IMG/VR virus record: IMGVR_UViG_3300030109_004684
Length of the DNA stretch: 64,000 nt
Reading direction: 5' to 3' (one strand)
Origin: an uncultured virus (IMG/VR IMGVR_UViG_3300030109_004684)
Taxonomy: Duplodnaviria; Heunggongvirae; Uroviricota; Caudoviricetes; Crassvirales
In this document: piece after piece, positions 10,568 to 45,131 of the stretch
How positions within the stretch are numbered: the first letter of the stretch is position 1
Layout of the letters: every line of letters begins with the position of its first letter
The notes under the pieces: model-generated
What the model saw: only the letters and a program-made list of their open reading frames with translations
What the model was told of the DNA's origin: nothing
Databases searched by the model: none
Translations under genes and position numbers: made by a program

Positions 10568-10732
10568 ATGCCAAATAGACAAAAAACATGTAGCGTAACT
10601 GGTGTTAAAACTTCTATACATAACTTCTATCAGAATCAAAATCATTTGAAAGCTGTAGATAATTTAAGAAGAAATACTGGTGCTACAAAAGAACAAATAA
10701 CAAGAATGTTTAACCAAATAAATAATTATTAA
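10568..10732 (+). CDS. Small hypothetical protein (54 aa)
   Basis: MPNRQKTCSVTGVKTSIHNFY...; fills the gap up to the SSB start. Confidence 0.6.
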   Translation: MPNRQKTCSVTGVKTSIHNFYQNQNHLKAVDNLRRNTGATKEQITRMFNQINNY

Positions 10733-11041: not shown

Positions 11042-12750
11042 TGAATAAAGAAGAGATCAATGGATTTGTTATTGACCAGTTCAATCAACATGGCCTGAAA
11101 GAAGGTGCCTCACAGGGGGTTTGTCCTTTGTGTTCGCATACCAGGAAACCTAAAAATCAAAAAGCACAGTGTGCTAGTTATGATTGGGAACGTGGTCTCG
11201 GTACATGTCACAACTGTAACAAAACATTTCAATTACATACTTATCAACGTAAAGGTGTTAGTGAAAGAGTTTATGTAAGACCAGAAACTCCAGAACAATT
11301 TAATGAGATAAGTACAAATGTTGAAACATGGTTTGGTACAAGAGGTATATCAAAACAAACACTCAAAGACCTTCGTGTAAATGAAGGTCTTGAGTTTATG
11401 CCTCAAACTGGTAAAAAAGAAAATACAATACAATTTAACTATTATATAGGTGATCAACTTATTAATATTAAATATCGTGATGGTAGAAAAAACTTTAAGC
11501 TTTATAAAGGCGCTGAAAAAGTATTTTATAATATTGATTCAATAGTAGGGTATGACACTTGCGTTATAACTGAAGGTGAAATGGATGTGTTAGCTTTACA
11601 CGAAGCCGGTATACCAAATGTTATTTCAGTGCCAAATGGTGCCACATTAAATAATAATAACTTAGATTATTTAGATAATTGTATTGATTATTTTGATGAC
11701 AAGACTAGAATTATATTAGCTGTTGATGCTGATGAACCCGGTCAAATGTTACAACGAGAGTTGGTTAGACGTCTTGGAGCAGAAGTATGTTATCTTATAG
11801 ACTTTAACGGTAATAAAGATGCTAACGACTTTTTATTAGAGCACGGAGCTGAAGCATTGCGTAGTGCTATACATAATTCAAGACCAGTGCCACTTGAAAA
11901 TGTATCAACCTTAAAAGACGTAGAAGATGAACTTAGAGACTTTGTTAAAAATGGATTTAAACCTGGTTTCCAAATCGGACTTCAAAACTTTGATAAAATA
12001 TTTAGTACATACACTGGTCAGTTTATTACTGTTACTGGTATCCCTAGTTCTGGTAAGTCTGATTTTGTCGATCAAATGGTTGTCGGTTATAATAATTTAT
12101 ATGGTTGGAAAACTGCGTACGCAAGTCCAGAAAACCAACCGGTATATTTACACGCTCATAAACTAATGCGTAAAACATGGCAAGACATGCCTTCACCAGG
12201 TGATATCGGAGGAGGTAAATGGAAAGAAGTAGCAGACCACGTAAACGATAATTACTTCTTTATTGACATGGACAAATACAGTTTAGATTCTGTATTACGT
12301 AAAGGTGCTGAGCTTGTGAAACGTAAAGGTATTAAATGTTTAGTTATTGATCCGTTTAATAAGATCAGAGACACTAACGCTGCGTCAGATGATGTAAACC
12401 GTTATACAATGGATTACTTAGCTAAGATCGAAACTTTTTGTAAAAAATATGATGTGTTAACTTTTATAGTTGCTCACCCAACTAAAATGTACAAGGGTCA
12501 AGATGGTAAAATAGAAGAACCTACAATGTATAATATTAAAGGTGGTGGTGAATGGTACGATGCTAGTTACCACGGCTTGTTAGTACATAGAGACTATGAT
12601 GCAAGAACTACAAAAGTAAAAGTACTTAAAGTTAAGTTTCAAAACTTAGGTGAAAATGGTGCTGAATCACATTTTACTTGGGAACCAAGGTCTGGTAGTT
12701 TTATACCTCATGAAACAGTAGATGAAAACGAACCAATGCCTTGGGAATAA
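11041..12750 (+). CDS. Bifunctional primase-helicase (T7 gp4/Twinkle-like)
   Basis: Zn finger CPLC...CHNC, TOPRIM motifs ITEGEMD, DADEPG and KDAND, Walker A GIPSSGKS, LVIDP, VAHP. Confidence 0.93.
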   Translation: MNKEEINGFVIDQFNQHGLKEGASQGVCPLCSHTRKPKNQKAQCASYDWERGLGTCHNCNKTFQLHTYQRKGVSERVYVRPETPEQFNEISTNVETWFGTRGISKQTLKDLRVNEGLEFMPQTGKKENTIQFNYYIGDQLINIKYRDGRKNFKLYKGAEKVFYNIDSIVGYDTCVITEGEMDVLALHEAGIPNVISVPNGATLNNNNLDYLDNCIDYFDDKTRIILAVDADEPGQMLQRELVRRLGAEVCYLIDFNGNKDANDFLLEHGAEALRSAIHNSRPVPLENVSTLKDVEDELRDFVKNGFKPGFQIGLQNFDKIFSTYTGQFITVTGIPSSGKSDFVDQMVVGYNNLYGWKTAYASPENQPVYLHAHKLMRKTWQDMPSPGDIGGGKWKEVADHVNDNYFFIDMDKYSLDSVLRKGAELVKRKGIKCLVIDPFNKIRDTNAASDDVNRYTMDYLAKIETFCKKYDVLTFIVAHPTKMYKGQDGKIEEPTMYNIKGGGEWYDASYHGLLVHRDYDARTTKVKVLKVKFQNLGENGAESHFTWEPRSGSFIPHETVDENEPMPWE

Positions 12751-12780
12751 TACAAACTAAATACAAACCAATTGGATAAT
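12751..12780 (+). promoter_or_regulatory. Class I promoter motif upstream of the nucleotide-metabolism cluster
   Basis: TACAAACTAAATACA-aaccaat-TGGATAAT. Confidence 0.8.
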
Positions 12781-23474: not shown

Positions 23475-26400
23475 TTAATCATGATAATAACATTTACCAG
23501 ATTTGTTTGACGTTTTCATTTTACATCTATCACCATCTGATTTTATTTGACTACACTGCACCTTAGTACCATCTGCTCTTTGTTCTACTTTATCGTGTAT
23601 TGTACAATAGTTTTTACCAGGTAAAGCTTCATTTTTACATCTTTCACCTTTTCTATTTATAGCTATACACCCACCATCTTCTTTTTTCTTATTCTCTTCT
23701 TCTTTAACTTTATTTTCTTCTTCTTGTTCTTTTTTCTTTTCTTGTTTCTTTTTATCAGATTTTTCTTTTCTTTGTTTGTCTTTGTCTTTTTTAATTTCTT
23801 CTTCAATAGCTATTATATCTTGATCTTCAATACCTAAGTCCCACGTATTCCAACCTAACAACAAAGCTATTCTTTCAACCATTGAAATATCTTCTGTGAT
23901 AGCGGCGTCTATATTATCTACTTTTTTAACTAAACGGTCTAAAGGTATATTTGTTACACCAGATATAACATTTGCAAGAGCACTATACACAGGGTTGTCT
24001 ATATCTAACAAATCCATTTTCTTTATAACATCTTCATTAAATTTTTCTGTTTGTATACCAGAGTATATTTTTCTAAGCTTAGATCCTATAGTAGGAGAAA
24101 AACTAACTAACTGCAACATTGTATATGTATGATCAGCGCCCCAGCCTTTATTTTTTTGTTTTAAATATTCTCTTATACTATTTTTAATAGTAACAACAGC
24201 GTTACCACCAAAACCTAAACCACCAAGTACAGAATCAAGCATACCGTTTAAAACTCTTTCATATGTTTTAGCATCTTTTTCCTCGTCATCATCACCAACT
24301 AAGGCACCTAACGCCGCTTGTAAACCGTTGAATATTAAATTTTGAACCATACCGTAGTATATTATTTTACTAAGATTTGATTTAAAATCTCCTCTACCGT
24401 TTTTAATATCTAAAAAAGCTTTTTTCATTAACCTAGCGTACTGCATAGGTGTGTTTTTAAATGCTAATATATATCTACCAAGGGGTGACGCTTGTTGTTG
24501 TGATATTAAATCTGGTCTTGAAGACTGTTGTGATTCTTCTGCTATTTCCTGAAAGTCATTAAACGCTTTTGCTTGTGCCTCTTGTTGTGATAAACCTTGT
24601 TTTAAATAAGTATTAACTCTGTTTCTATAAAACGTAGCGCCACCACTAGCAATAGCAAAACTATCCGCTATTTGTGTAGGCAAAAAACCTTTTGTTAACA
24701 ACCAGTTTAAAGCTGCTTTAGCTTTGTTTGTTGAGCCAGCAATAGCAGCTGCAAGCTCGGCTTCGTTAATACCTCTTTGATTACCAGCACGTCTTTGCTT
24801 TAACATGTCGGAATTAAATATCATGCTAAAATCTTTCCAAAATTGTTTTTGATTAGCAAATGCAGTTGCTGCTTTTAAAGGATTATTATCTGACCAGTTT
24901 ACAAAGTTTATAGACGATATAGTTTGTAGTAAAGCAGACCTCATATTAAAGAACATGATAGCACCAACAGACTGATTAGCCCAGTTGTTAAACGCATTAA
25001 CAAGTTTATTTTTACCTTGCTCTCTTTTTCTACCATACTCCATACGGTATAATATATCTTGCAAAGCATCTCTGTAGTTAGTACCATATAGAGCTTCTAG
25101 TTTGTTCATGTTTTCACCAACTAGATTATCGCCCTGCCACTCACCAAATATTTTAGCTCTATTTTGTTTAAACTCTGCTAGGTGCTCATCTCTTGTTACC
25201 TCGTTGTTTAAAGTTTGTATATCACTTAATATGTTTTCAACTAACCAAAACTCCGTAGGTGGTGTATAACCAACAGGTTGATTCATTAATTTACTTAATT
25301 GCTCAGAAAAAGCTTTTAAACCATCACTTGCGCTAACCCAAGACGTAAGTCTATTTAAATCAGTTTGCGATAAACCAGGTACATCATAACCAGCTTTGTT
25401 CCACAAATAAACTCTAACAGCTTGCTCTTGTGTAAACTGCGTACCGGGTACGTTTTCTTTTAATTGTTTTTTAACTTCTGGAAAAGCTTTTAATATTTGT
25501 CTATATGAACTTTGTACTTGTTGTGTACTTCTGTTTATATTTGTGTAAGCTCTAGCAAAAGGATCTAATAATGATCTTTTAAAAAATGCAATATGTTGTT
25601 CACCTTGTCTACCTTTACCAACAAGCCTATATAATAAACCTTTAAAATCTTCTGCTGATGGTGGTACAAAGAAATTAAATCTACCTTTTTTACTACCACG
25701 TATTTTAGCTTGAGCATTTGAATATCTTTTTTCAGCAGCATCACCCATTGTTTGCTCTATAATTCTGTTTAAATCAAGCTCTTGACCAGTTTGACCATCT
25801 ATTTGTCTACTAAATTGATCAGGCATTGATCTACTAAAATTTATTCTAGCTTGTACAGAACTACCTTTTATATCTAATTGATCCATTATGTTAGCAACCG
25901 CTTCAACATTTGGCAACGCGTCATCAACAAAATAAACATCATTATAACCTTGAGAAAATTTATCAGCTATCCACAATGCTTTTGCTTCACCTGTACTATT
26001 ACCTAAACCTGTTATATTTTCTATAGGCATATCAATACCCTGTGTTTCTAACCAAGCTTTAATAGCTGGAGCAGATTCTGGAGGTCTAGCTGTTAATATA
26101 TAGTTGTTTTCAATACCATATTTTTCTATTCTGTTTCTAAGCTTTTGCATTAGCGGTCCTTCAACACCGCCTCTTACGTTTACAAAATCTGTAAAATCAA
26201 ACTCGTAGCCTTGCTCAGCTAACAAAGGCCCTTGTATAGGCCATTGTGCAGATCCTATTCTAACAACATCATCTCCTCTTTTTGCTATAATAAAATTATC
26301 ACCTTTGTCAATTAATGTTTCATCAAAGTCAAAAGCAGACATACCTCTTGCTGGTGTATTTTCATCAATAGTACGACTAAGTTGTACAGCTTTGGTTACA

Positions 26401-29400
26401 ACTTTATCATTTCTAGACTGAGCACCAGTCATTCTTACAACTTCGTTTATAGCTTGTATTATACCATCTGTTTCAGACAAATAGTCAACAACGTTTTTAC
26501 CAGAAAAATGATATATACCTTTGTCTTTTCCTTTTGTAAATTTAACTAATCTATAATCGGCTTCTAAACTTGTTTTGTTATCTACCTCTTTACCAGCAAT
26601 ATTTACTTTTGCATCAATAAATTCTGGTGATGCTAGAACTTTTGTTAACCAACCCGACTCGTGATTAAAACCTACATTGTCTAGACTTATTGACTGACCA
26701 TTACTATAAACATGTGAAACTAATTCCGCGTTAGAAGTAGCAGAAGCACCGACGTGTTCGTTTTTAAACAACAAATCATTTATTGTAGCAACTTCTACAG
26801 CTGCTTTCATAGATATATCTTTGCCTATTTCCACTGACTTATTACCAACTTTTACTTTACCGGCTTGCCCTAATAGTTTTTCGTTTTTAGTTTTAAACTC
26901 TTGCCACTCTGTTGTTTGTTCCCATGAAGATATATAGTTATTCCAATCATTACTTGTGTAATATTCTTGATTACTTCTTTTGTTTACGTCTGGTTTTTTT
27001 AGTAAAACTTTTTTACCAGATCTATTTGTTGAAAATGGTAATTGTAAACCGTCTGTAAGATAAACATATTTAAAAGAAGACAATGCTCTTAGGCCTTCAA
27101 CTATATTTGTTTGAACTTGACCAAGAGTAAACACAAATTGAGCATCTATAGTGCCATCTCTATTATAAGCTTCTTTCATTTTAGCAGCAACGTACCTAAA
27201 CGCTATATGATTTGCTTCATTTATTTTTGCTATTTCATCTTGAAGCTCTGTCATTTTTGCTAGTTTAGCTGCTCTGGTTGAATTACCGTTTTCGTCTGTA
27301 GCAAAATGTATTTCTTCTAGTATTTTTTTTATTCTACCATCAAACACCATTGGTTGAATATTTTTTAAAGCTTCTAAATCACCACGTTTAAAACCATTTC
27401 TCTCTAAAAACTCTAACTCTGCTTGCTCATTAAATTCTTGGCTTCTGTTTTCAATAGCAGTAACATTTTCAACATGATCTTTTTTATTGAGTGTTCTACC
27501 TTGTTTATATCCTAGTAAAAATAATAACGTTTTAGTTGGAAAGTTAGGGTGAAAAGACATACCTAAATCTCTTGTTTGGTTAGAATATTTTTCTATATAA
27601 GATTTATTTTTAGGATCTTTAGGGTTTATTTTACCACCTTTCCATATCGCCCTAGCACCTTGAGTTTCAATTAATTCTTTAATAGCAGTAGGTGTAAACT
27701 TATCATCTCTTACAAAAGGTATGTAATTTTTACCAGCACCTAAACTTTCGTTTACGTTTTGTAAAAATTGATCCACAAGTGTTGCTACTTCAGGATATAC
27801 ACCTGCCATATAATCGTATTGCTTAGGATCTTGTCTTAAAGCCATTATCATTAAAGTGGCTACATCTGCTTCTCTTTGATTATAACCTGGCTCTATTTCG
27901 TTTGTAACAGGGTTTACATCGTTATCAACAGCTGTTCTAGAAAATACTAAATTAGATTTACCGTTTGCTATTTCATTAATTTGTTCTTGTGGTATACCTT
28001 TTTGTTCTAAACGATTTCTAACTTGTTGGTTTGTTGCTACTCTACCATGTTGTTCAATTAGTGCTTTTACTCTTTGACTAACATTGCTTTCTTTACCTGT
28101 TATATTTATTTCACCAGCTGGCGTTATACCAAATACGTTTAAAAACTCTGTAACACCTATATCAGTTCTTTTACGTTGCGGAAATAAATTACCAACTCTT
28201 TTACCTTTAATATAAAAAGGTTCTAATAAAACATTTTGTACACCAGTAGCTTTTGTAGGTCTATTATTTTTATCAGTCATAAACCCTTGTGGTAAACTTA
28301 TTTTTAACGTAGACGCATGTTTGCTAATATAAGGCTGTAAAGCTTTTATATCTTGCTGGTTTAAATTGTCATTGTTAGTTAACTTTTTTAATATACCATC
28401 TACAATAGGTGTTCCAAGTTGTCTTTTACCTTTAGTTGTTTTCCAAAACGGACTACCGTTGTCGACATAAACTTTACCATAAGCACCATTGACCATTTGA
28501 TCATTAACCATACGCTCTATGGTTTTTCTAGGATTTAAATCTTTTAAAGTTTTATATGTTTTACTAGTATATATACTTGGGTCTTGGTCTATTTGATTAT
28601 TTATATCTTCATTATACTCGTTAATTTGTCTTTTTAAATTTTCATTAAAAGGATCATTTTGAGTAAGCTTGTTGGTAACCACTATTTGACCAGCTGCAAA
28701 TTGATTGTCTTCGTTTAAATCAGCTTCTTGAGCTTCGGTTTCTTGCAAAGAACCTTGAGCTTCTTCAAACTGTTGTTTAAACATTTTATCTTTAGTAATT
28801 TTAGATATAGCTTCATAAGCTCTAACTCTAAAATATTTATTTATATAAGCAGCTATATTTCTATATTTTTGTTTTTCAACTTCAAAATCTCTTACTAAAC
28901 CTAAAACATTTCTAGCTTTATTTTTACCGTCACCTGGGTCATATAACATTTCTGCTATAACATCTTCCTTGTTGTTAATTAATATATCTCTTATTTGTTG
29001 TGATGGCGCTGTTGCTACAGCTACTTCAAATCTAACCTCTGCCATGCCTCTGTACTCTTCAGCTATTAAGCCAGCTTTTTCATCTACAGACATGTTAGGG
29101 TCTGCGTATATATCATTAACTCTTTGTACTAATCTTTCTCTTTGTTCGTTGCCAAACTCTTCGTTTACCGCTGCTTCAGATCTTGAAAATTGAGTTCTAG
29201 AAAGTGGTCTTGCTGGGTCTTCCAATATAGGCGTTGTTTCTGCATAAAGCTTTGAACTAGACGTAGCCATATCTACAAGTTGATCACTAAACTTACCTTC
29301 AATAGCTTGTTTGTTATAAGTATTTAAAAAATCTAAAAGCTGTTGAGGTGTTTTTATGTTAATGTCAATTACTTCGTGTACGTCTTCTTCTACTTTTGTT

Positions 29401-32400
29401 TTCAAAAAGTCCTTAAAATAATCTACAACTTTTCTAACAACTGATCTATTATCTGGTTGAGTTATATCAATTTTTAATTCACCTTTTTCAGAAACAACTA
29501 AATCATGATAATGTGTTAAATATTCTTCTGCATAAACTTCAAACGGTAGTTCTGCTCCGTTTTCTTTATCAAAGTTTTCATTTTTATATCCGTTTCTATA
29601 AACAACTGTTTCTAATTTATTTCTATGATCTGCCGGTAGTAAATCTAAAAATCCTTGTATTAATTTAGCGCCTTCTTCTGTTAATCTTGTTTGGTAGTTT
29701 CTGCCGTCAGGACCTTTAACTGTTCTTATAGGACCGTTTAAAACAGAAAATAAAACCATATGTAATAGCTCGTGTGACGCAGCTGTGTTTCTTTTATACT
29801 TTTTAGCCATGTCTTTGTTAACAACCACTACTCTTTCAGGTTTACCATCTCTAACAATTTCATGTATAAAAGCATTAACGCCTTCTTCAGCGAACACCTC
29901 GTCTAATTCACCAGCAGCAACAGCTTCATCTATTTGTTCTTGAGTTAATGCAGCCATACCAAGACCTGCTTGCCCTAAAACATCTTGAACAGCACCAAGG
30001 TTTCTTTGTATTTCTTGATCTTCAAGTGATTTTAACGCTTGGTTTTCTCTACCTTTTATAATCATACCACCAGCTTGCTCGTCTAGTTCATAACCTCTAC
30101 CTTGAAGCTCTATTAGTTTTACAGCATTTTGTAAATCATTTATACGGTTTGTATTTGGATTTTTTTTACGTCTTTCTTCTAGTAACTCTTGTCTAAGTTG
30201 GCTTATTGTTTTGCCTTGATTGTCAGGGCTTGTTAAAAATTCTGAAGTTTCTTGAACATCGTTAGCACTCATTAAAACCTCGCCTTTTTTAAACAAACTT
30301 TTACCAGTTAAATCATTAACCATACCAGCTACATAAGCTGCTTTTTTAGAATTAACTTTATTGCTTATACGTATTTTAGGTACTTTACCTTTATCAAAAT
30401 AACCATTTGCTTTTGCCTTTTGTAAGGCCGCTATAAATTTAGAAGCACTGTTAAAATGCTTGCCATTAAACTCATATAAAGAAGCTTTTTCTCTAAGATC
30501 ATTACGTTCTTTTATAGCTTTTTGTATTTTAACTTTTAAATCTTGTCTTTTCTTAGAACCAAGTTCAGAATTTTTCCATTGAGCTTTTAAGTTTACTACC
30601 TGAAACTCTTTAGCTTGTTGCTCTCTTGATACATAACCAGTCTCAACTGTTTTAGCTACTCTTTTTATATCTAGCTCTACATTTTTTAAATCTCTTCTTA
30701 ACTTTTCTGTTTGCGTAGGATCTGTACTTTCTTTGATTGATTTTTGTAATTCATTTTTAGCGTATAACAAACTTAACGTTTCTTGTCTTTCTATATTTGT
30801 CATGTTAGCATATTGCTCTGGATCAATGCTATTTTTAGCTAAATTAAAGCCATTAACAGTTTGCATTATGTTCATGTAGTTGTCTGCGTCTATATCACCG
30901 TTGTTATATCGCTTTAACATTTCACTACTAAAACCATCAAAATCTTCTATAGCTGCAGTATATAAACTTGAATCAGGTTTACCTCTTCTAAAACCCCTTG
31001 TTCTTACCGCACCCATTGAAAGTATAGAGGCAGGTGTAATTAAACCTAATTCTTTAAAACTATCAAGTCCTGGTAATTCAAAGTTTGTATTGTATTTTTG
31101 ATTACGATAAGCATTGTGTAAACCACTAGCAGCTTCTTGTGAAAATTCTTCTAATATTTCTGCGGGTATTTGTTTAATACTTTGTTTAAAAAGATTAATA
31201 GTTTTAGTAGCATTAGTACCATTTTTCCATAACTTGTAATTACCCCAGCCAGGTGTTTGCTTAAATTTATTTAATTTTGGAAACATAGCAATATCAGGAT
31301 TAAACATCTCTATAGCAGACTCTGTTGCTGTTTTCCAAAAAGCTCCTTTCATAGCATCTTCAGCTGTAAAATCATCATCTATTTGTGATACTGCTTCTTG
31401 AACGTTTTTAGGAAAAATAACAAGACTAGAACCACTAAACTGTGCTGCTCTATTTGCTATTTGTGCTTTTGAAGAAAGTTTACCAATTCTATTAATAGCT
31501 GGATTTAGTTTTGTTAAGCCAACAGTTGGAATTTTAAGAGTTTTACCTAGTCTAAGGGCAGTTTTACTAGCAAGTTTAGATGTTGCACTTACAGCTCCTT
31601 TTATAAGTCCACCAGTCCTCATCATCATGACCATGTCTACAACCACAGCGGCTGTTGTTGGTGCTATATTAGTCCATTGTATTTCGCCAGTTTCTTCGTC
31701 TATAACACTTCCTTCACCAACAGCATCCCATGTTACTTGTTCAGCACCAAGGCTATACATGTTATATACTTGAGCTCTACCTTTAGCGTCTTTACCCATA
31801 CCTACTAATCTTGGTACTTCCGCCTCAATCATACCCGCTAAACCAAATACAGTATTAGCAAGAGCACCCCAACCACTTTCAGCTATATTTGCTATTTGCC
31901 AACCTACATGACCGTTTTGTGCTTTATGAAGTCTTTCTTGTTTTTTCATTTCATCATCATAAAGCTCTTTAGCTATATTTTTTATACCATAAGGTTCGTC
32001 TTTGTTTGGTGTTATTAAATTATTAAACGATTGTATAAGATTTTGATCTTTTTCTACTAAATCATTGTATTTATTAAATAGCTCTTGGTTATACTCGTTA
32101 TTAGCAGTTTCATTGTAAACACCAACAAAATGCTCCAACATCTTGCTTTTACCATTTATATCTGCAGATAGCTCTTCTAGTTTACTTTTACTTTCTTCAT
32201 CGTCTTTTACTTTACCAGATTTAATATCTTCTTGTAATGTTTTGTATTCTTCTAACAAAGACTTTACATCAGTATCAAGCTCAGCAACAACAGCCGAGCT
32301 AGAATCTAAAGAGTTTGACGCGCTAATAATACCAGCGTCAGCGTAATTGTTTACTACTTCTCTGTTTTTACCTATACGATCAGTAAGGTACATTTGTAAA

Positions 32401-34568
32401 GCTTGTGCTTTAAATTTATCTACTTGTAGATAATCGTAACCATCAGCAACAGTACCACCTGAATAAAAGAACTTTCCTTTTTTTTCATCCCATTGAAGTG
32501 ACGCGCTTTCATAAACGTCTTCATCTTTTTTATAACCGTATGTAGAAATATCAAGATTTTTAAACAAACCATTTTTCATTTGCTCTTCAACAAACATTTC
32601 AAAATCTTGCATGTCATCAACACCTATACCGCTAAGATCGTTGTCATCATAAAAATAAGACCATTTAGGTTGTTTCTTTTTTATTTCATCTTTTATACTT
32701 TGTTTGTTATCCGAAGTTTTTAAGTTTTGCACACTTTCTACATACCATGACTTATCTTTAAAACTATTGTAACGCTCATCCCACTCTTTTTTTTCTTTTT
32801 CATGGTTAGACCATTTCTCTTCATTTTTACTGTGGTCACCATTTATTTCGTAGTTACCATACCACTTGTTGTAATAATCTATATCTTGTTGTGTAACTTT
32901 TATATTTTCACCATTAAGGTTGTATTCGCCTGGTACAAAGTTTATTTGCTCTGAACTACCAAACGCTCTACCTTCTTCACCGTTTTCTATTAAATAATTT
33001 TCTTTATTTTTTTCAGATAATTGACTAGCTATTTGTACAACTTGACTTACTGAGCTGTTACCATTGTATTCTCCACTCCAAAAAGCTTCTATAGATTTAG
33101 TGTCTGTTGATGATATACTTTTTTTATGATCTAATAATTTAAAATCATAATCTTTTTGACTAATTTTTATTTGATCTTTAGCCGGTCTAACACCAATACT
33201 TTTTAATCTTTCAACTTCTTCGTCAGTTATTTTGTAAGTACCATCATCTTGTAAAGTATAAACTTCAGGACTAGTAATATCATTATCAACAATATCATCC
33301 ATACCACCTTCTTTTTTACCAGGCGCTGCTTCATTTATATAAGCTTGGTAATCGTTTTTTACTGTGTTAAACGTACTCGCTTCACTAGCAATACCAGTAG
33401 CGCTAAGAAAATTTTTCCAACCTTTTGATGTTACTATAGATTTTAATCTTGTTTTTGACCCAGCCTCACCAACATTTTTAGGGTACCAAACATCTTGATA
33501 ATATTTTTCCCAGCCCATGTCTTTTCTTCTGGTGTACTCTTGTTCTTTCTTTTGGTAAGCTTTTTTTTCTGTTACTCTTGCTGTACTTAACCTATATATC
33601 TGTGAGTTTTCTTGGCCTTCTTTTCTATTTTCAACCTCGTACAATGCTTTAGGCCCATGTAAAAGATTCATAGAATTTTGTTCCTCTTTTGAAGCTATTA
33701 CTGTTTTACCGTTTTCATCTACATATGACCATACCACCTCTGCATCTATATCTATATCAGCATCTAAAAACTCTTGGTCCATTCCAGCCATAAGTTCTTC
33801 TTTAGACCTAGCTGTATATTGTTTGTATCTATTTTTATTTAAAGCTTCTGGATTTGTTGTTTTAAGACCATCTAGTAAGTATTTGTTTTTTACTTTACCC
33901 TTAGAGTTACCATCAGCATCTATATAATGCCATTCTAGTTTACCATTTTTATTTGCTATAGCTCTATAGTTATTACCACTACCACCTATTTGGTATTTAT
34001 CATCTAATTGTTTTTTCATCCATTTTTGTAGTCTTTCGGATTCGGCAATATCATCTTTTTCATAAACATGATCTGTACTAATCTTAATAGATGATCCTCC
34101 AAAAGTAACAGTTATCTGATCGTTACCAGTATCTTTAAATTTAAAACCTTGTTTTGAAAAGGTTCTGTTTAAAGTACCAGCAACAAAATCATCATCTCCA
34201 TAGCTTAATAAATAATCTTTAGGCTGACGGTCGTCTGAGTTGTTGTACTTTCCATCTTGTTTAGTTAACCTAGCTAAATCATCATTAATACCTTTTGTAA
34301 CGGCGTCATTACCTTTTTTAACTAAATCTTGCATTTCTTCACTATCATACTCTCCATATATAGAAGCCTGCTCTAATTTTTGTTCTTCAAAAGCTGCTTT
34401 TTCTGCTTCTTCTTGTTTTTTAATCGCTTCAGCTATTTTTGCTTGTCTAGCAGCTTCTGCTTTAGCTTTTTCTCTACGTAACTGCAAAGCGTCAATTATA
34501 ACTTGATCGCCATAACCTTTTGCCCTTAAATTCTTAGCTATTTTTAATTCTTCTTGAGTCGCTGCCAT
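23475..34568 (-). CDS. Giant (3697 aa) internal-virion/ejection polyvalent protein: zincin, sigma-2-like, HAD and C-terminal Zn-finger modules
   Basis: Last gene of the virion block. Contains HELLH...AEEY, FDFDETL...ILTAR...K...FVDD, two C-terminal CCCH fingers, and hydrophobic A/G-rich stretches. Confidence 0.8.
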   Translation of the reverse strand: MAATQEELKIAKNLRAKGYGDQVIIDALQLRREKAKAEAARQAKIAEAIKKQEEAEKAAFEEQKLEQASIYGEYDSEEMQDLVKKGNDAVTKGINDDLARLTKQDGKYNNSDDRQPKDYLLSYGDDDFVAGTLNRTFSKQGFKFKDTGNDQITVTFGGSSIKISTDHVYEKDDIAESERLQKWMKKQLDDKYQIGGSGNNYRAIANKNGKLEWHYIDADGNSKGKVKNKYLLDGLKTTNPEALNKNRYKQYTARSKEELMAGMDQEFLDADIDIDAEVVWSYVDENGKTVIASKEEQNSMNLLHGPKALYEVENRKEGQENSQIYRLSTARVTEKKAYQKKEQEYTRRKDMGWEKYYQDVWYPKNVGEAGSKTRLKSIVTSKGWKNFLSATGIASEASTFNTVKNDYQAYINEAAPGKKEGGMDDIVDNDITSPEVYTLQDDGTYKITDEEVERLKSIGVRPAKDQIKISQKDYDFKLLDHKKSISSTDTKSIEAFWSGEYNGNSSVSQVVQIASQLSEKNKENYLIENGEEGRAFGSSEQINFVPGEYNLNGENIKVTQQDIDYYNKWYGNYEINGDHSKNEEKWSNHEKEKKEWDERYNSFKDKSWYVESVQNLKTSDNKQSIKDEIKKKQPKWSYFYDDNDLSGIGVDDMQDFEMFVEEQMKNGLFKNLDISTYGYKKDEDVYESASLQWDEKKGKFFYSGGTVADGYDYLQVDKFKAQALQMYLTDRIGKNREVVNNYADAGIISASNSLDSSSAVVAELDTDVKSLLEEYKTLQEDIKSGKVKDDEESKSKLEELSADINGKSKMLEHFVGVYNETANNEYNQELFNKYNDLVEKDQNLIQSFNNLITPNKDEPYGIKNIAKELYDDEMKKQERLHKAQNGHVGWQIANIAESGWGALANTVFGLAGMIEAEVPRLVGMGKDAKGRAQVYNMYSLGAEQVTWDAVGEGSVIDEETGEIQWTNIAPTTAAVVVDMVMMMRTGGLIKGAVSATSKLASKTALRLGKTLKIPTVGLTKLNPAINRIGKLSSKAQIANRAAQFSGSSLVIFPKNVQEAVSQIDDDFTAEDAMKGAFWKTATESAIEMFNPDIAMFPKLNKFKQTPGWGNYKLWKNGTNATKTINLFKQSIKQIPAEILEEFSQEAASGLHNAYRNQKYNTNFELPGLDSFKELGLITPASILSMGAVRTRGFRRGKPDSSLYTAAIEDFDGFSSEMLKRYNNGDIDADNYMNIMQTVNGFNLAKNSIDPEQYANMTNIERQETLSLLYAKNELQKSIKESTDPTQTEKLRRDLKNVELDIKRVAKTVETGYVSREQQAKEFQVVNLKAQWKNSELGSKKRQDLKVKIQKAIKERNDLREKASLYEFNGKHFNSASKFIAALQKAKANGYFDKGKVPKIRISNKVNSKKAAYVAGMVNDLTGKSLFKKGEVLMSANDVQETSEFLTSPDNQGKTISQLRQELLEERRKKNPNTNRINDLQNAVKLIELQGRGYELDEQAGGMIIKGRENQALKSLEDQEIQRNLGAVQDVLGQAGLGMAALTQEQIDEAVAAGELDEVFAEEGVNAFIHEIVRDGKPERVVVVNKDMAKKYKRNTAASHELLHMVLFSVLNGPIRTVKGPDGRNYQTRLTEEGAKLIQGFLDLLPADHRNKLETVVYRNGYKNENFDKENGAELPFEVYAEEYLTHYHDLVVSEKGELKIDITQPDNRSVVRKVVDYFKDFLKTKVEEDVHEVIDINIKTPQQLLDFLNTYNKQAIEGKFSDQLVDMATSSSKLYAETTPILEDPARPLSRTQFSRSEAAVNEEFGNEQRERLVQRVNDIYADPNMSVDEKAGLIAEEYRGMAEVRFEVAVATAPSQQIRDILINNKEDVIAEMLYDPGDGKNKARNVLGLVRDFEVEKQKYRNIAAYINKYFRVRAYEAISKITKDKMFKQQFEEAQGSLQETEAQEADLNEDNQFAAGQIVVTNKLTQNDPFNENLKRQINEYNEDINNQIDQDPSIYTSKTYKTLKDLNPRKTIERMVNDQMVNGAYGKVYVDNGSPFWKTTKGKRQLGTPIVDGILKKLTNNDNLNQQDIKALQPYISKHASTLKISLPQGFMTDKNNRPTKATGVQNVLLEPFYIKGKRVGNLFPQRKRTDIGVTEFLNVFGITPAGEINITGKESNVSQRVKALIEQHGRVATNQQVRNRLEQKGIPQEQINEIANGKSNLVFSRTAVDNDVNPVTNEIEPGYNQREADVATLMIMALRQDPKQYDYMAGVYPEVATLVDQFLQNVNESLGAGKNYIPFVRDDKFTPTAIKELIETQGARAIWKGGKINPKDPKNKSYIEKYSNQTRDLGMSFHPNFPTKTLLFLLGYKQGRTLNKKDHVENVTAIENRSQEFNEQAELEFLERNGFKRGDLEALKNIQPMVFDGRIKKILEEIHFATDENGNSTRAAKLAKMTELQDEIAKINEANHIAFRYVAAKMKEAYNRDGTIDAQFVFTLGQVQTNIVEGLRALSSFKYVYLTDGLQLPFSTNRSGKKVLLKKPDVNKRSNQEYYTSNDWNNYISSWEQTTEWQEFKTKNEKLLGQAGKVKVGNKSVEIGKDISMKAAVEVATINDLLFKNEHVGASATSNAELVSHVYSNGQSISLDNVGFNHESGWLTKVLASPEFIDAKVNIAGKEVDNKTSLEADYRLVKFTKGKDKGIYHFSGKNVVDYLSETDGIIQAINEVVRMTGAQSRNDKVVTKAVQLSRTIDENTPARGMSAFDFDETLIDKGDNFIIAKRGDDVVRIGSAQWPIQGPLLAEQGYEFDFTDFVNVRGGVEGPLMQKLRNRIEKYGIENNYILTARPPESAPAIKAWLETQGIDMPIENITGLGNSTGEAKALWIADKFSQGYNDVYFVDDALPNVEAVANIMDQLDIKGSSVQARINFSRSMPDQFSRQIDGQTGQELDLNRIIEQTMGDAAEKRYSNAQAKIRGSKKGRFNFFVPPSAEDFKGLLYRLVGKGRQGEQHIAFFKRSLLDPFARAYTNINRSTQQVQSSYRQILKAFPEVKKQLKENVPGTQFTQEQAVRVYLWNKAGYDVPGLSQTDLNRLTSWVSASDGLKAFSEQLSKLMNQPVGYTPPTEFWLVENILSDIQTLNNEVTRDEHLAEFKQNRAKIFGEWQGDNLVGENMNKLEALYGTNYRDALQDILYRMEYGRKREQGKNKLVNAFNNWANQSVGAIMFFNMRSALLQTISSINFVNWSDNNPLKAATAFANQKQFWKDFSMIFNSDMLKQRRAGNQRGINEAELAAAIAGSTNKAKAALNWLLTKGFLPTQIADSFAIASGGATFYRNRVNTYLKQGLSQQEAQAKAFNDFQEIAEESQQSSRPDLISQQQASPLGRYILAFKNTPMQYARLMKKAFLDIKNGRGDFKSNLSKIIYYGMVQNLIFNGLQAALGALVGDDDEEKDAKTYERVLNGMLDSVLGGLGFGGNAVVTIKNSIREYLKQKNKGWGADHTYTMLQLVSFSPTIGSKLRKIYSGIQTEKFNEDVIKKMDLLDIDNPVYSALANVISGVTNIPLDRLVKKVDNIDAAITEDISMVERIALLLGWNTWDLGIEDQDIIAIEEEIKKDKDKQRKEKSDKKKQEKKKEQEEENKVKEEENKKKEDGGCIAINRKGERCKNEALPGKNYCTIHDKVEQRADGTKVQCSQIKSDGDRCKMKTSNKSGKCYYHD

Positions 34569-39347: not shown

Positions 39348-42300
39348 TTAATCCGCTGTTGAATCCCAAACACCGTCAGCAGCACCATCTGTATTGCTGT
39401 CTATTTCTGTGTCTGGATTATAAGTTGTACTTTCGTTATTTTTTACTACAAATTTATATCTTCTAGTATCTCCAGATCCACTTACAGAGCTTGGTACACC
39501 AAGTCCTTGTACTGAAAATTCTTTTTGGTCCAAGTTACTAGAGGTTACAGATAAATCAATTTCATCATTTACATGTGAAGTTGTTTCACCTTTTAAATAG
39601 TTATACCATTTACCTTCTTTTTCTATAAAGTTTGGTATACTTGCTGTTTGTTCATTTGTTACAAAGTTATCTAAATACCAACCAGTAAAATCTTTTAAAT
39701 TATAATAATTACTATCTGTTAATTCTTTTGTTATTTTAGCTTGCGTGCCCTCGTAATTTACACTTGTAAAACTTTTTATACTTCCTGGTTGATCATTAAA
39801 TATAGCTGTTAAAGAAGACTCGTACTGTACACCATAAAAATTATTTCTAGTATCGTTAGAATATTCTTTCCATAAAGCACCAAACTTAAATGTATAAAAG
39901 TCATTGTTTATACTTAAACCGTTTTCTGGATCTATATCTCTAAAACTAACCCAACCTTTTGAATTTTCACTATATGATAAAGTATAAACAGTTGTTGTTG
40001 GTGCGGCATAAGCTTTTGCGTTGTTATCATTTTTAGGTACCTCAAATTGCTGTGTTATACTAACATTGTACAAAGATTTTCTATCATCAAAAGTTCCTAT
40101 TATTTTTTTAATAGTTGTTTGTGTACCGTCTACAGTGCCAGGTTTTAAATTATCAGCAAACCAATCATGCATACCTTGTGATGATATTGGTGTTACACCA
40201 TCATTTGATAATCTACAAACTTGACCTCTAGCCGCGTCTACAAAATAAGATCTAAAATTATCAATTGTAAATGATTCTGGGTTTTTAGTACCATAATCTC
40301 CTTGGTAAGTTGTTACCGATCCTAGCACTACACTTTTTGAAATTAAATCAGCACTACCATCAGCTTTAAATAAAGCATCTTTATCTGCTATTATACTAAA
40401 ACATTTATCTTCTGTAACAACAGCTAAATTTGTATCTCTACTTTTTACAACTTGTATAGAACCATGTCTAGGATTTAAGTCCTTTGTTATTTTTTTACCT
40501 GCTAAAAATTGATTTGTTTCGTTTATACCACTAACTGAATTGTATATACCAGAGTGTATTAAGCCTGTTGCTTTTCTTTCTTCTTCATAATGCTTTGCTA
40601 GTACAGTAGAAGCTTTAACACCATTTTTAATATAAGGTTGATTAAAGTCATCTCTTATTCTATTAGATTCAACACCATTACCAAAAGAATAACAATTGCT
40701 ATAAGCTAAATCAAACGTTTGTTTATGTGGCATTTTATCTGGATCTGTTTCTTGATCTCTAAGCGTACCATAAAAAGTTATTGTTAAATCACCTATAGCA
40801 GAAGCCTGTTTGGCTACTAGTCTATTTACAGCACCATCATCAGTTGTAAATGTAATTACATCATTCACACTAACCGCTTCGTCAATGGCGGTATCTAAAG
40901 TAACTGTTTGGCTACTCCAACTTTGAACTTTAGTAGTTACACCAAAAGCAACACCAGTTGTTACGCCAAAAACATTAGTTGGTTGTTTGTTAACAACAGC
41001 ACCTATTTTACCATACTGCTCATTAGTATCAGCGTCTAACACAAAAGGATATGCTTGACTAGCTTCATAGTAAATATCTAAACCAACATCTTCTTTAGGT
41101 TCTGTTTCCCATATAGCTGGATTTGTACTTGATAATCTACCATCAAAAGGATCAAACTGTTCTACAAACTCTATAACACCGTTGTTTCTATAATCTACAG
41201 CTGTACCCCACTCAGCACCGTTTGCTGTCGTGTGGTCGTATGGATGAAAACTAGTTCCGTTACCATTAGCGTTTCCAATACCAAAACCATCTCTATCTTC
41301 AATAATTAATTCAACAGACCATCTGTGGTTTGATCCGTGTTCAAAGTCATCATAACCAAAGTAACCAAGATTGTTTTCAGGATCGTAATTAAATCTACGA
41401 GGTAAAACCCTATGGCTTTTTACAGTATAAACTATTTGATCTGGATCATTTCTAAATCTAAACATCCTACCTGTTTGTAAAAAACTAACTATCTCAGCTT
41501 GATCCGTTTCATTTCCAATACTAAAATCATCAGGCATAGCGCCTCTATGTGTCATTTTACCAGTAAAAACACCTCTTTGACCGTCTTGATATACACCTGC
41601 GTATGACATCAATACAGCTGTACCTGGACCTGTTACCCCAGCTGGGTTAACGCTAGCTAAACTAGCATCAAATATACCGTGCTGCCCGTTTGCTATATTA
41701 GTTTGGTGATTAAAGTAACTAGTAGCGCCAAAACTACTAGGTGGTATTTGAGTATTATCCGTGCCTCCTTGGTTTTGTACATCTTCGTTAGCTGTTATAG
41801 CACTATCTATAAACCAACCCGAACCTCCCTGCGCGTAAGCTGTCCACCAGGCTGCGGTTGCTCTTCTTCTTCTACCCCTAATGTTTATTCTAAGACCTTC
41901 TTCTAAAGCTGATATTGCATCACTACCGCTAGAATTATCAGTAAAACCAGCAGGGTGGAAATGATAGTCTGAATCACCACCTGGATAATTCCCGTCAACA
42001 GCTTTTAAAAGGTATATATTACTACCAGAAGTAGCATCTGGACTATTTATCCCTAAACTGTTATAAGTTAAATAATTAGTATTCATAGCCATTACAACTT
42101 GAAATCTTTGGTTTTCACTTTGTGTAAGTATGTTTTCTTCTAATACTAAATCTCTATATATTTTAACAAAAAACCTTCCATCAAACTCTGGTTTTTTAAC
42201 TGGTATTCTAGTTACCATTTCTATTCTTATGTTGCTAACAGCATTACCTATAGTTTGACCTGGCGCTAAAAAATCTACATCAGGACCTAATATACCGTCA

Positions 42301-45131
42301 ACATTTATAGTGTGAAAACTAGGATCATCAAAAGACTGTTTTATAGACGCAACGTTATAGTACTTGCTAGTAACACCAGAAACATTAAATCTAATATAAA
42401 CTTGACCAGCGTAAAGCGCTTGTAAAATATTTGGGTCTAAACCAGCAGAACCACTTTGTGTTGTTGACATAGAGGTGTAAAACGGAGCTGCCGCTATATC
42501 AAACTCTGTGTATCCTTCAAAAGGAAAACCATTTGTTGTAGTTCTTACAATTTGAGTATAGTTAGGGAAATTTGCAGGATCAACTGTACCTATTAATTTT
42601 TGATCTAACGTTATAAACAATGGCGCTTCATTAGATATAGCAATAACTTTATATCTAGCAAGGTCTGATACAGGCACGTTGTTTTCATGCTGTTTTTTAA
42701 GTATTAAAAAAGTATCTTCATCAATTTTATTTCTCTCAGCAGAAGCAAAGCTAATCCAAACGTTACCATCTTCAGCGTTGTACCAACGATCCATTGCCAT
42801 GTTATAGTATTCGTTAGAAGTTTCTTTTACAAAAAATTTCCATGAGTGTGCAAAGTCAGGTGCTTCTGTAGATATTTGCGCTGTTAATTTATTTATTTTA
42901 AATGCTTCTTCTTTTTCAAGTTTTAACGTTGAATCTTTACCACCTGTAAGCACTGGTGTTTCTCTACCATATTCATCTCTATATACAACACCAAGTTGAT
43001 ATGTTCTTATTGTCTTTACAGACTTAAAAGCATCAGCACTAGGCATAGGATCAAAATTAGTTTCATTAGCAAATACTTGTCCTAATTCACTTAAAGTTGA
43101 TGTGGCTGATAATTTTACTTGTGGCAGTATCTCTACACCATTTTTTGATATATTAAAGTTCTGTAAATAATTTGCATACACAAGTCTATTAGCTACTATT
43201 TCTTGAGCTAATGCTTTTCTAGGTACATTGTCAAAAGGTCTTATTAATTGATCTTCTGGTAGTAAAGCGTGTATTAACTCTGATGTTAATTCATAAACAC
43301 CTCTTTCATATACACCTCCTGGCCATCTAGGTGATTCGTCTGATATTTTTATAGACTCAACAGTATATATCTGTGGCTTACCTTCTTCTTTATATAATAT
43401 ATCTATTTCAACAACATCTCTACCACGAGTTGAATCTTCAACAACATAATCAGTTATTTTTAAATTTCTTAACTGGTTAGTCATGCCAAGGTTGTAAGCT
43501 TGTACTGGTGCATAATTAAATTCACCAGGTTTAAAAGCTATTTCAGAGTATGGTGATATAACTGAATATTCACCATCTTTATATTTATATCTATACGCAA
43601 ATCTAACAAATTTATTTTCAAACAAAGGTCTACTTTGCTGTAGTCTACATCTGTAAGTAACTTCAGATGTTGGTACTGATTGGTCTATGCCAAGCACTAT
43701 GTATGTAAAAGCATCACCAGCGGCACCTGATAATATAGTATCTGGTGCACTATGACCTGATGGTACATCTTCTATACGTATTCTAACTTCATGTTCTATA
43801 AAAGTATCTTCGTCTGCATCTTCATCAGAAGTAAATATTAAAACATCACCAGGTCTAAAATCAACAGGTTCATTAAAAAATATTTCAAAAGGACCATCAC
43901 CAGCTGATAATAGTTCAGAGTTACCACTTACGGGGTTTACATCTGAAAAAGCAAAATCAATTATTGTTGATGTATTGTTGGCTACACCTGTTGTAGAGTT
44001 ATTTCTTTCTGCCTCTGTGATAGACATATCTAAGTGTGGAGGTGTTAAAGGTGCTTTTCTTAAAACTGTTATATGTTCTTCTTCTAAAAACACCGCTTTG
44101 TTACCAGCGAAATTAGTAACTACTTCTAAGTTAAAACCATCTATAGAAGAGACTAATCTAGTGTGAAAGTGATCGGTTCTATCACTTGTTGGAAAACCGT
44201 GTGTTGCGTCTAATTGAAAAAATAAATCTGAAGTAGGTGAGCCTGCTGCAAAACCAGCTGTACCTCCACCTTTTAAATACTCTGTACCACCAGTACCCAA
44301 AGCACATCTTTCAATATTTATTTTTTTAGGTTCAGTATGATTATCTGTCCAGAACAACATACCATCCATAACATTTATACCTGTTATTAATCTATCTTTG
44401 TGATAATTTAAAACTCTAGGCGCTGAAAATATTATGTTATCATCTTGAGATATTTCTATGTCTTTAGATAAAGATATTGCCCAATCAGAAGGACTACCAG
44501 CATCTTTAATAATATCAGTTACAAATACATCGTCTATTTCTGACACAGAATAAGTTTGTCCGTTAGCAACACTTGTGCCGTCTGGCGCTGTTATAGTACT
44601 ACCACTACCATTTGTAAAAAGTCCTGTTAGTTTCATACCTATTCTAACACCAGTAATATTAATAGTACTAGTACCCATATCTGGAATATGTACGTGATTT
44701 TTATTACTAGCATGGCTACCTGAAACTTCTTTTGTTACAACTTTATGTATATCAACAACAATGTATCTATAGTTGGTTGTTTGTATATTGTACTCTAAAA
44801 TATAATCTTTGTATACTTGTGCACCGCCAGTAAAGCTACCTGTTTCTGTTGTTATATTAGATGCTTCACCAGTTTCTGGACCGGTAACCATCCAGTATAT
44901 TTTATCGTTTTTATGATCAGCTATAGACCCAACACAATCAAAGTCATTGCTTGAAAAAATATCATCAAGCTTTGTGTTGCCTTTTACAGTTTGCACAGTA
45001 CCCACGTTTGATCCTTCAGATGTATTTATTTCTACGTTTTGCGCGTCTCTATATTCACCACTTGGGACAAGTCTTTCATCTATGTCCTTGTTCATTTTAC
45101 TAGCGCCAAACTGTCTTTTTATTTCTGGCAT
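39348..45131 (-). CDS. Large tail protein (stabilization/nozzle-like)
   Basis: N-terminus KMNKDIDERLVPSGEYRDAQN and LFWTDN..EPKKINI resemble tail stabilization proteins of Bacteroidota podoviruses; follows the tubular proteins. Confidence 0.7.
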   Translation of the reverse strand: MPEIKRQFGASKMNKDIDERLVPSGEYRDAQNVEINTSEGSNVGTVQTVKGNTKLDDIFSSNDFDCVGSIADHKNDKIYWMVTGPETGEASNITTETGSFTGGAQVYKDYILEYNIQTTNYRYIVVDIHKVVTKEVSGSHASNKNHVHIPDMGTSTINITGVRIGMKLTGLFTNGSGSTITAPDGTSVANGQTYSVSEIDDVFVTDIIKDAGSPSDWAISLSKDIEISQDDNIIFSAPRVLNYHKDRLITGINVMDGMLFWTDNHTEPKKINIERCALGTGGTEYLKGGGTAGFAAGSPTSDLFFQLDATHGFPTSDRTDHFHTRLVSSIDGFNLEVVTNFAGNKAVFLEEEHITVLRKAPLTPPHLDMSITEAERNNSTTGVANNTSTIIDFAFSDVNPVSGNSELLSAGDGPFEIFFNEPVDFRPGDVLIFTSDEDADEDTFIEHEVRIRIEDVPSGHSAPDTILSGAAGDAFTYIVLGIDQSVPTSEVTYRCRLQQSRPLFENKFVRFAYRYKYKDGEYSVISPYSEIAFKPGEFNYAPVQAYNLGMTNQLRNLKITDYVVEDSTRGRDVVEIDILYKEEGKPQIYTVESIKISDESPRWPGGVYERGVYELTSELIHALLPEDQLIRPFDNVPRKALAQEIVANRLVYANYLQNFNISKNGVEILPQVKLSATSTLSELGQVFANETNFDPMPSADAFKSVKTIRTYQLGVVYRDEYGRETPVLTGGKDSTLKLEKEEAFKINKLTAQISTEAPDFAHSWKFFVKETSNEYYNMAMDRWYNAEDGNVWISFASAERNKIDEDTFLILKKQHENNVPVSDLARYKVIAISNEAPLFITLDQKLIGTVDPANFPNYTQIVRTTTNGFPFEGYTEFDIAAAPFYTSMSTTQSGSAGLDPNILQALYAGQVYIRFNVSGVTSKYYNVASIKQSFDDPSFHTINVDGILGPDVDFLAPGQTIGNAVSNIRIEMVTRIPVKKPEFDGRFFVKIYRDLVLEENILTQSENQRFQVVMAMNTNYLTYNSLGINSPDATSGSNIYLLKAVDGNYPGGDSDYHFHPAGFTDNSSGSDAISALEEGLRINIRGRRRRATAAWWTAYAQGGSGWFIDSAITANEDVQNQGGTDNTQIPPSSFGATSYFNHQTNIANGQHGIFDASLASVNPAGVTGPGTAVLMSYAGVYQDGQRGVFTGKMTHRGAMPDDFSIGNETDQAEIVSFLQTGRMFRFRNDPDQIVYTVKSHRVLPRRFNYDPENNLGYFGYDDFEHGSNHRWSVELIIEDRDGFGIGNANGNGTSFHPYDHTTANGAEWGTAVDYRNNGVIEFVEQFDPFDGRLSSTNPAIWETEPKEDVGLDIYYEASQAYPFVLDADTNEQYGKIGAVVNKQPTNVFGVTTGVAFGVTTKVQSWSSQTVTLDTAIDEAVSVNDVITFTTDDGAVNRLVAKQASAIGDLTITFYGTLRDQETDPDKMPHKQTFDLAYSNCYSFGNGVESNRIRDDFNQPYIKNGVKASTVLAKHYEEERKATGLIHSGIYNSVSGINETNQFLAGKKITKDLNPRHGSIQVVKSRDTNLAVVTEDKCFSIIADKDALFKADGSADLISKSVVLGSVTTYQGDYGTKNPESFTIDNFRSYFVDAARGQVCRLSNDGVTPISSQGMHDWFADNLKPGTVDGTQTTIKKIIGTFDDRKSLYNVSITQQFEVPKNDNNAKAYAAPTTTVYTLSYSENSKGWVSFRDIDPENGLSINNDFYTFKFGALWKEYSNDTRNNFYGVQYESSLTAIFNDQPGSIKSFTSVNYEGTQAKITKELTDSNYYNLKDFTGWYLDNFVTNEQTASIPNFIEKEGKWYNYLKGETTSHVNDEIDLSVTSSNLDQKEFSVQGLGVPSSVSGSGDTRRYKFVVKNNESTTYNPDTEIDSNTDGAADGVWDSTAD

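Follow-up and report, generated by a model that had tools for sequence, protein, structure and literature searches.

How could a phage without a visible RNA polymerase start transcription from promoters that do not resemble those of its host? This question is raised by an uncultured virus of the Crassvirales (IMG/VR record IMGVR_UViG_3300030109_004684), of which we analyzed a stretch of 64,000 nucleotides (nt), here called the window. On its minus strand, nt 23475 to 34568 form a single open reading frame (ORF) encoding a giant protein of 3,697 amino acids (aa) (P0001; residue n starts at nt 34568-3(n-1)). A previous reading of this locus, made from the sequence only, had proposed that a segment of this protein is a sigma factor injected with the particle, which would redirect the host core polymerase to the early promoters of the phage. 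We favor another explanation, to which we assign a probability of roughly 0.6, namely, that residues 1797 to 2208 form a cargo module processed from a polyvalent virion protein and that their likeness to sigma factors is one of helix arrangement only.

A conserved segment between recurring tripeptides

The tripeptide FSR occurs at residues 1794, 2209, 2911, and 2919 of the giant protein, against 0.34 occurrences expected from composition (Poisson, about 4 in 10,000). Residues 1797 to 2208 lie between the first two of these sites, and the interval delimited by the sequence-only reading, nt 27936 to 29204, corresponds to aa 1789 to 2211 of the one ORF. Its coordinates and FSR bounds were accurate, and so was the placement of LIAEEYRG...RAYEAI at about nt 28800 to 29070, which we found at nt 29069 to 28806 (aa 1834 to 1921).

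A search among proteins of 2,033 to 6,470 aa returned 27 homologous giant proteins sharing aa 1780 to 2230, with identities from 79% down to about 30%. We aligned 22 whole giant homologues, and invariance and boundary-motif fractions were computed on these 22. The first boundary motif (nt 29181 to 29189, minus strand; aa 1794 to 1796) and the second (nt 27936 to 27944, minus strand; aa 2209 to 2211) are conserved across the alignment, the fractions matching [FY][SA][RKQLN] position by position being 0.68, 0.86, and 0.68 at site 1794 and 0.91, 0.77, and 0.77 at site 2209. At the third and fourth motifs (nt 25806 to 25838, minus strand; aa 2911 and 2919), F2911 and S2912 are invariant in 22/22 sequences, and the fractions at site 2911 are 1.0, 1.0, and 1.0. 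A conserved [FY][SA][RKQLN] was found at exactly three module boundaries, the sole other match to pass the filter being a YAR within the C-terminal domain. Within the first 2,700 residues, conservation is also highest in the segment, with a mean identity of 0.36 to 0.49 per 100 residues, compared to 0.12 to 0.33 for most other parts.

The sequence-only reading had treated these ~415 residues as one unit. The FSR bounds stand, while the unity does not: BLAST mapping resolves the segment into a module A (aa ~1784 to 1950) and a module B (aa ~1978 to 2215), and among distant homologues five have A only and six have B only. Module A (nt 28695 to 29180, minus strand; aa 1797 to 1958) is predicted to be helical and ends in a long helix. 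Counting aa 1789 as residue 1 of the segment, its invariant residues are G53, M54, A55, D89, K96, R98, V100, G102, L103, V104, D106, N122, and R128, which in protein numbering are G1841, M1842, A1843, D1877, K1884, R1886, V1888, G1890, L1891, V1892, D1894, N1910, and R1916. Against 1.84 billion representative proteins, module A gave 25 matches, the short ones of which start or stop in the middle of the domain. Since these look like contig fragments, no free-standing module A is seen; in two of them, an HExxH motif again precedes module A by 140 to 180 aa.

Module B (nt 27945 to 28637, minus strand; aa ~1978 to 2208) is predicted to mix helices and strands. It gave no match in Pfam, NCBIfam, or hhalign and no structural neighbor, and it yielded no match to sigma domain 3 or 4 (P, 0.36 to 0.73 against sigma alignments in hhalign); a weak Pfam hit to RecX_HTH1 had an E value of 0.048. 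Between modules B and A themselves, hhalign found a weak likeness (P, 0.0058 over 104 columns), which might reflect a shared long helix or an old duplication.

A string of modules encoded among the particle genes

Directly upstream of the segment lies an HExxH (zincin-like) region (nt 29199 to 29951, minus strand; aa ~1540 to 1790) with HELLH at aa 1599 to 1603. Residues N1584, H1599, E1600, H1603, and E1682, that is, the HExxH and a downstream glutamate, are invariant in 22/22 sequences, and in all three proteins checked (P0001, P0149, and P0154) the HExxH is located 140 to 200 aa upstream of module A. Profile searches of this region (Pfam and a PDB-sequence profile) gave no match. Beyond module B and an unassigned stretch comes a HAD-phosphatase-like module (nt 25839 to 26336, minus strand; aa ~2745 to 2910) with the motifs DFDET, LTAR, and FVDD and with D2747, D2749, T2751, D2882, and D2883 invariant; its NCBIfam match to TIGR01509 (HAD-IA; E, 0.011) reached 15.9 bits, under the cutoff of 29.4, and an invariant FS[RK] site follows it. 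Conservation in the giant protein peaks in the subsequent region (nt 23769 to 25805, minus strand; aa ~2922 to 3600), where mean identity per 100 aa reaches 0.47 to 0.81. It contains several hydrophobic stretches, gave no family match, and may be an ejection-protein part that faces the membrane or forms a channel. The protein ends in two Cys/His zinc-finger-like repeats (nt 23478 to 23669, minus strand; aa 3634 to 3697; zf-TRM13_CCCH E value of 0.0069, below cutoff). These Cys-x-Cys...Cys-x2-His repeats are preceded by a Lys/Glu-rich linker, and repeats of this kind also end distant homologues, such as P0159.

None of the modules had a Pfam or PHROGs match at threshold. The whole protein matched no PDB sequence in phmmer, a profile of the 22 whole proteins retrieved only CT398 from the PDB sequences at an E value of ≤10 (E, 2), and the segment and the C-terminal 798 aa had no tblastn match in 50,697 phage records. 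In some homologues, such as P0019 and BFVD entry A0A218MLT5_1, zeta-toxin or P-loop kinase domains (PF06414, PF07931, and PF13671) replace other modules, which indicates that the giant-protein family swaps effector-type modules.

The giant ORF belongs to a block of particle genes and lies downstream of a gene for a muzzle-type tail protein of 1,927 aa (nt 39348 to 45131, minus strand; PF25729 crAss_MUZ_C, E = 1.2e-08; phrog_14478, E = 1e-124). Among the 50,697 phage records, the nearest relative of the portal protein is that of the uncultured podophage MW202828.1 (53% identity), followed by those of 68 Flavobacterium Elemovirus records (41%), of Cellulophaga phages including phi38:1 (35%), and of Tenacibaculum and Maribacter phages. 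The cultured nearest relatives infect flavobacteria, and the host is therefore probably a flavobacterium. Giant genes are found at the matching position in phi38:1 (gp101; 1,691 aa), Elemovirus (gp18; 3,694 aa), and MW202828.1 (3,859 aa), and gp101 and gp18 are annotated as structural proteins. None of the three products has detectable sequence likeness to the giant protein studied here, while two of the three harbor HExxH motifs at a similar position.

Several unrelated domains are thus joined in one polypeptide encoded near portal, terminase, muzzle, and tail fiber genes, as in polyvalent proteins. The cargo-module explanation is supported by the position in the particle-gene block after the muzzle-type tail gene, by the structural annotation of giant genes at the matching position, by the invariant HExxH...E, which fits the peptidase of polyvalent proteins, by the conserved boundary motifs, and by the separate occurrence of A and B in remote homologues, among them one with zeta-toxin-type kinase domains. 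According to this explanation, the giant protein would be packed in the particle and would enter the cell with the DNA as a string consisting of an HExxH peptidase-like module, A, B, the unassigned stretch, the HAD-phosphatase-like module, the conserved hydrophobic C-terminal part, and the zinc fingers. The [FY]S[RK] linkers would be cleavage sites, cut either by the protein's own peptidase or by a head protease, and cleavage would free aa 1797 to 2208 (~47 kDa). Module A would be a family-specific helical domain, in which D89, K96, R98, D106, N122, and R128 form a putative binding site for a host or nucleic acid target. The class I promoters, described below, would be read first by the host polymerase and later through the phage's own sigma. 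Packaging, cleavage, delivery, and target are what we infer from the observed anatomy, conservation, motifs, and gene order; for packing and host delivery in particular, the support is the match in gene order to phi38:1 gp101 and Elemovirus gp18.

Comparison of module A with sigma factors by sequence

By eye, the sequence-only reading had aligned this part of the protein with sigma-70 region 2. Profile searches did not bear out the alignment: neither the segment nor module A or B matched any sigma family in Pfam (E ≤ 0.1), PHROGs (E ≤ 0.01), or NCBIfam (E ≤ 1), and Pfam Sigma70_r2 (PF04542) gave no match to the nearest record (G001). In hhalign, module A scored a P of 0.11 against five Escherichia coli sigmas, of 0.38 against these plus the phage's own sigma family, and of 0.17 against T4 gp55. 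With a gp55 family of 11 members, P was 0.07 and the register differed; with the phage's own sigma family alone, the value was 0.4%. Unrelated modules of the giant protein, used as controls, gave P values of 0.13 to 0.71. The insignificant hhalign alignment pairs IA..YRGM with IAKKY and also LGLVRDF with the sigma block, the same blocks as were matched by eye. By contrast, the phage's real sigma, encoded at nt 8086, was found at once and matched 31 NCBIfam sigma families, providing a positive control. The lack of a sigma signal in module A under these conditions argues for the cargo-module explanation.

These sequence negatives are nevertheless weak and the hhalign test is low powered, because T4 gp55, a very divergent sigma, was equally invisible. 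Against the E. coli sigmas, the single gp55 sequence had a P of 0.43 and the gp55 family one of 0.09; against alignments including the phage's own sigma, the values ranged from 0.018 to 0.19. Across the sigma alignments, the gp55 family, a genuine remote relative, gave P values of 0.018 to 0.09. The T4 gp55 record is annotated as a late sigma, and a sigma-2 type of structure has been reported for the protein. The best local BLAST match between module A and gp55 pairs EKQKYRNIAAYINK with DETKYKNPHAYITQ (E, 0.17 for one comparison). Y/F120, N122, and R128 are conserved in the helix that would match regions 2.3/2.4, where sigma factors have conserved aromatic and basic residues for melting and reading the -10 element; the register is not fixed by any significant alignment. 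Judged by these sequence comparisons, module A is not an ordinary member of the sigma-70 family, and a relative as distant as gp55 remains compatible with the tests.

Predicted fold of module A

AlphaFold2 models built from family alignments were confident. The 423-aa segment reached a predicted local distance difference test (pLDDT) of 79.5 and a predicted template modeling score (pTM) of 0.59, and module A alone (175 aa) reached a pLDDT of 81.2 and a pTM of 0.78. Module A is predicted to be all helical, with helices at residues 4 to 16, 19 to 34, 40 to 50, 52 to 64, 69 to 77, 79 to 87, 100 to 114, 117 to 137, and 140 to 170. Residues 88 to 99 form a 12-residue loop that holds the invariant D89, K96, and R98 and is the most conserved loop of the family.

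Modeling followed by Foldseek had been suggested as a check on the sigma proposal, and the outcome was divided. Foldseek found nothing at an E value of ≤0.001 for either model against 350,542 PDB chains; the best rows were the cyanophage A4 pre-ejectosome protein (E, 0.76) and talin (E, 0.58). Against BFVD, the sole match was A0A218MLT5_1 (E, 1.5e-05), a homologous giant protein of an uncultured virus that is uninformative on function, and the ESM Atlas gave no usable match. A structural aligner run over all 48,161 representative chains, of which we considered the best 50 rows, did return sigma factors: for module A alone, 13 of the 50 rows belonged to sigma factors or to complexes with them (1rp3, 8vjl, 9m84, 8x6g, 2o7g, 6pmj, 7d7d chain F, 4cxf, 5h6x, 1sig, 6dxo, 7vpd, and 4nqw), and the 423-aa model also gave 13 of 50. 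The chains 7d7d_F, 6dxo_A, and 4nqw_A are probably the sigma in their entries. The superposition on sigma-2 domains involves model residues ~19 to 141 of module A (aa 1807 to 1929; nt 28782 to 29150, minus strand), and it covers these domains almost entirely in SigC (87/89 residues), an RpoS fragment (93/96), and pro-sigma-K (93/116).

Such a result could mean that module A descends from sigma domain 2 and that, freed from the injected polyprotein, it binds the beta' clamp helices and directs the host core polymerase to the class I promoters, which we regard as quite unlikely. It would then work like T4 gp55, with domain 2 only, and the long helix that follows might read the TG of TGGATAAT. 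Sigma-2 domains indeed lead the structural neighbors, with the helices in the same order from region 1.2 through region 2.4 and, in sigma-28, further into the sigma-3 region. The presumed gp55 chain is among the sigma rows of highest identity (16 to 17%), in a register that agrees with BLAST: the alignment with 7d7d_F ends with model residue 137 on chain residue 114, an offset of 23, which is also the offset of the BLAST match to gp55. However, prenyl synthases occupy 10 of the 50 rows with a better root mean square deviation (2.8 to 3.9 Å), four rows are phage neck, portal-tail, or pre-ejectosome proteins, and the scores of prenyl synthases, Mx/dynamin stalks, nuclear-receptor domains, a T4 neck protein, and a cyanophage pre-ejectosome protein equal those of the sigma rows. 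In addition, the conserved loop D89...K96-x-R98 would interrupt the helix aligned with sigma region 2.2, the beta'-binding helix, and module B offers no match to sigma domain 3 or 4. The 12-residue insertion and the equal scores of nonsigma folds speak for the cargo-module explanation, and the likeness of the predicted module A fold to sigma-2 is too weak to claim an injected phage sigma. Whether the injected-sigma interpretation is right or wrong, we cannot tell.

The same structural evidence could be read in yet another way, which we consider unlikely as well: module A would be sigma-2-like and bind the host polymerase without being a sigma, acting as a clamp-helix decoy that halts host transcription or as a tether for the entering DNA end or for cargo. 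The conserved family insertion and the lack of a sigma-4 partner would fit such a derived, noninitiating role, and injected modifiers of the host polymerase are known, T4 Alt being an example given in PMC5512222. The evidence from the predicted fold is, however, equally weak for this proposal.

The phage sigma gene and the promoter-like motif

The sigma-70-family gene of the phage (nt 8086 to 8841, plus strand) encodes 251 aa and was identified by TIGR02937 (48.8 bits; cutoff, 42.9), by phrog_351, and by hhalign against the E. coli sigmas (98%). Its relatives in the metagenome protein collection number at least 8,000, and the 120 listed are 72 to 98% identical, many of them from ocean surveys, suggesting that phages of this group abound in the sea.

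The motif TACAAAsTAAATACA-N7-TGGATAAT, referred to above as class I promoters, is present in 7 exact copies, all on the plus strand, compared to 0 in 100 shuffles. The copies start at nt 2173, 2419, 3369, 4181, 4649, 5912, and 12751, spanning nt 2173 to 12780, and a near copy is found at nt ~2717. AATACA is present twice in the motif, at a distance of 11 nt, and a -10-like GATAAT follows a TG; TAnnTTTG, the promoter consensus of the Bacteroidota, is lacking. A scan of the 64 ORFs revealed no RNA polymerase, and homologues of the giant protein do not conserve its two DxDxD strings. The sequence-only reading was therefore right that an early motif is repeated, that no polymerase is visible, and that the separate sigma gene lies downstream of a motif copy, the one at nt 5912.

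These facts are what the injected-sigma proposal draws on from outside module A: 7 promoter-like copies with a -10-like TGGATAAT and without TAnnTTTG, a phage sigma gene located downstream of the motif, and no polymerase found in 64 kb. Because the sigma gene follows the motif copy at 5912, the chicken-and-egg argument, that this sigma could hardly be the first to read the motif, is fair. It is not compelling, since a low level of transcription by the host, amplified later through the complete sigma of the phage, would also work. The Bacteroidota-type pattern TTG-N17-23-TAnnTTTG has 11 matches on the plus strand and 8 on the minus strand of the window, and one match (nt 5851) upstream of the sigma gene is about what chance predicts. 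An IMG/VR scan for TAAATACA-N7-TGGATAAT, with 80 loci listed of 102 stretches and one match each, looks like chance and was set aside.

Related phages do not settle the matter. The whole of MW202828.1 and 83% of an Elemovirus record are devoid of the sigma homologue, the motif, and module A; for phi38:1, the 34% of the record covered contains neither sigma homologue nor motif, which says little. Since sigma, motif, and module A are absent together, their co-occurrence cannot tell which protein reads the motif. In MW202828.1, the early region (43000 to 60850; locus positions 734 to 8289) harbors 13 copies of the perfect palindrome GTGTCGTTAACGACAC, mostly ~20 to 30 nt upstream of small plus-strand genes, and nothing like it is found in the window. 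This hairpin-forming GTGTCGTTAACGACAC, carried by a phage whose giant particle protein is a different one, is reminiscent of the hairpin promoters used by the N4 virion polymerase. The giant protein of MW202828.1 contains no polymerase motif.

Organization of the phage genome

The genome of this marine phage is ~66 kb, and the window represents nearly all of it, given that the longest contig bearing the giant protein has 65,819 bases. On the plus strand, the region from 1.9 to 17.3 kb starts with small ORFs without assigned function and continues with genes for replication and nucleotide metabolism. The plus-strand genes include those for a ligase, endonuclease V, the sigma-70-family protein (nt 8086 to 8841), Erf, an exonuclease, a primase-helicase, ThyX, MazG, a resolvase, and ribonucleotide reductase. 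Two gene starts on this strand (nt 1905 to 1943 and 7459 to 7497) share a 39-nt stretch, TAAyAGGCTAATGTCAC..., comprising the ribosome binding site and first codons, which points to duplicated or coregulated translation starts. The minus strand encodes GroEL/GroES, a holin, the terminase, the portal, head proteins, tail fiber-like proteins, the giant ORF, an endolysin, and the 1,927-aa muzzle protein. GroEL is accompanied by two GroES-like genes (nt 61003 to 62571, 60759 to 61016, and 55283 to 55873, minus strand), as is likewise seen in Elemovirus and MW202828.1.

Comparison with known systems

Phages are known to start their transcription either from promoters that the host recognizes or with an injected polymerase. 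Virion RNA polymerases, among which we count N4 gp50 and phi14:2 gp66, resemble the present case in that N4-like and crAss-like phages encode a giant protein after the tail genes, presumed to be injected, and have an early motif that is not host-like. They differ from it in that the protein described here has neither a conserved metal-binding DxDxD nor any polymerase match. What this phage group does combine is a promoter-like motif specific to the phage and a well-conserved module in a giant particle protein, with no polymerase in sight.

One may ask whether marine flavobacterial phages without a virion RNA polymerase deliver a gp55-like, domain-2-only sigma within a self-cleaving particle protein, which would load the host core on TACAAAsTAAATACA-N7-TGGATAAT before any phage gene is expressed. 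We give this scenario little credence, but if it were true, it would constitute a third route to start a phage transcription program besides host-type promoters and injected polymerases. If module A binds the host polymerase at all, be it in the role of a sigma or of a decoy, this would make it a new kind of injected takeover factor. Otherwise, the giant proteins still form a family of polyvalent particle proteins that has not been catalogued and in which a candidate cleavage motif recurs. In the literature searched, we found no report of a particle-packed sigma, and the word "sigma" has 0 occurrences in PMC5512222 and PMC5335546.

Compared to sigma-70 domain 2 and T4 gp55, module A has no profile match and would carry an extra helix and the conserved 12-residue loop in the equivalent of region 2.2. 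Moreover, those sigmas are free early or late gene products, while module A is embedded in a 3,697-aa particle protein. The cyanophage A4 pre-ejectosome protein (PDB 9k2v/9k3a) scores no better than chance level, with ~105 of 973 residues aligned.

The closest parallel is offered by the polyvalent proteins. According to Iyer, Burroughs, Anand, de Souza, and Aravind (2017; PMC5512222), the zincin-like peptidase is the commonest domain of such proteins and is fused to the N4 virion RNA polymerase gp50, and an autoproteolytic release of modules has been proposed. Unlike N4 gp50, the protein described here has no polymerase module, and unlike polyvalent proteins in general, its modules have no Pfam or PHROGs match at threshold. 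It nevertheless shares with them the organization as a giant multidomain protein encoded among particle genes, a putative zincin-like HExxH...E region, and the stringing together of unrelated modules, including the HAD-like module here and the zeta-toxin-type kinase in a homologue.

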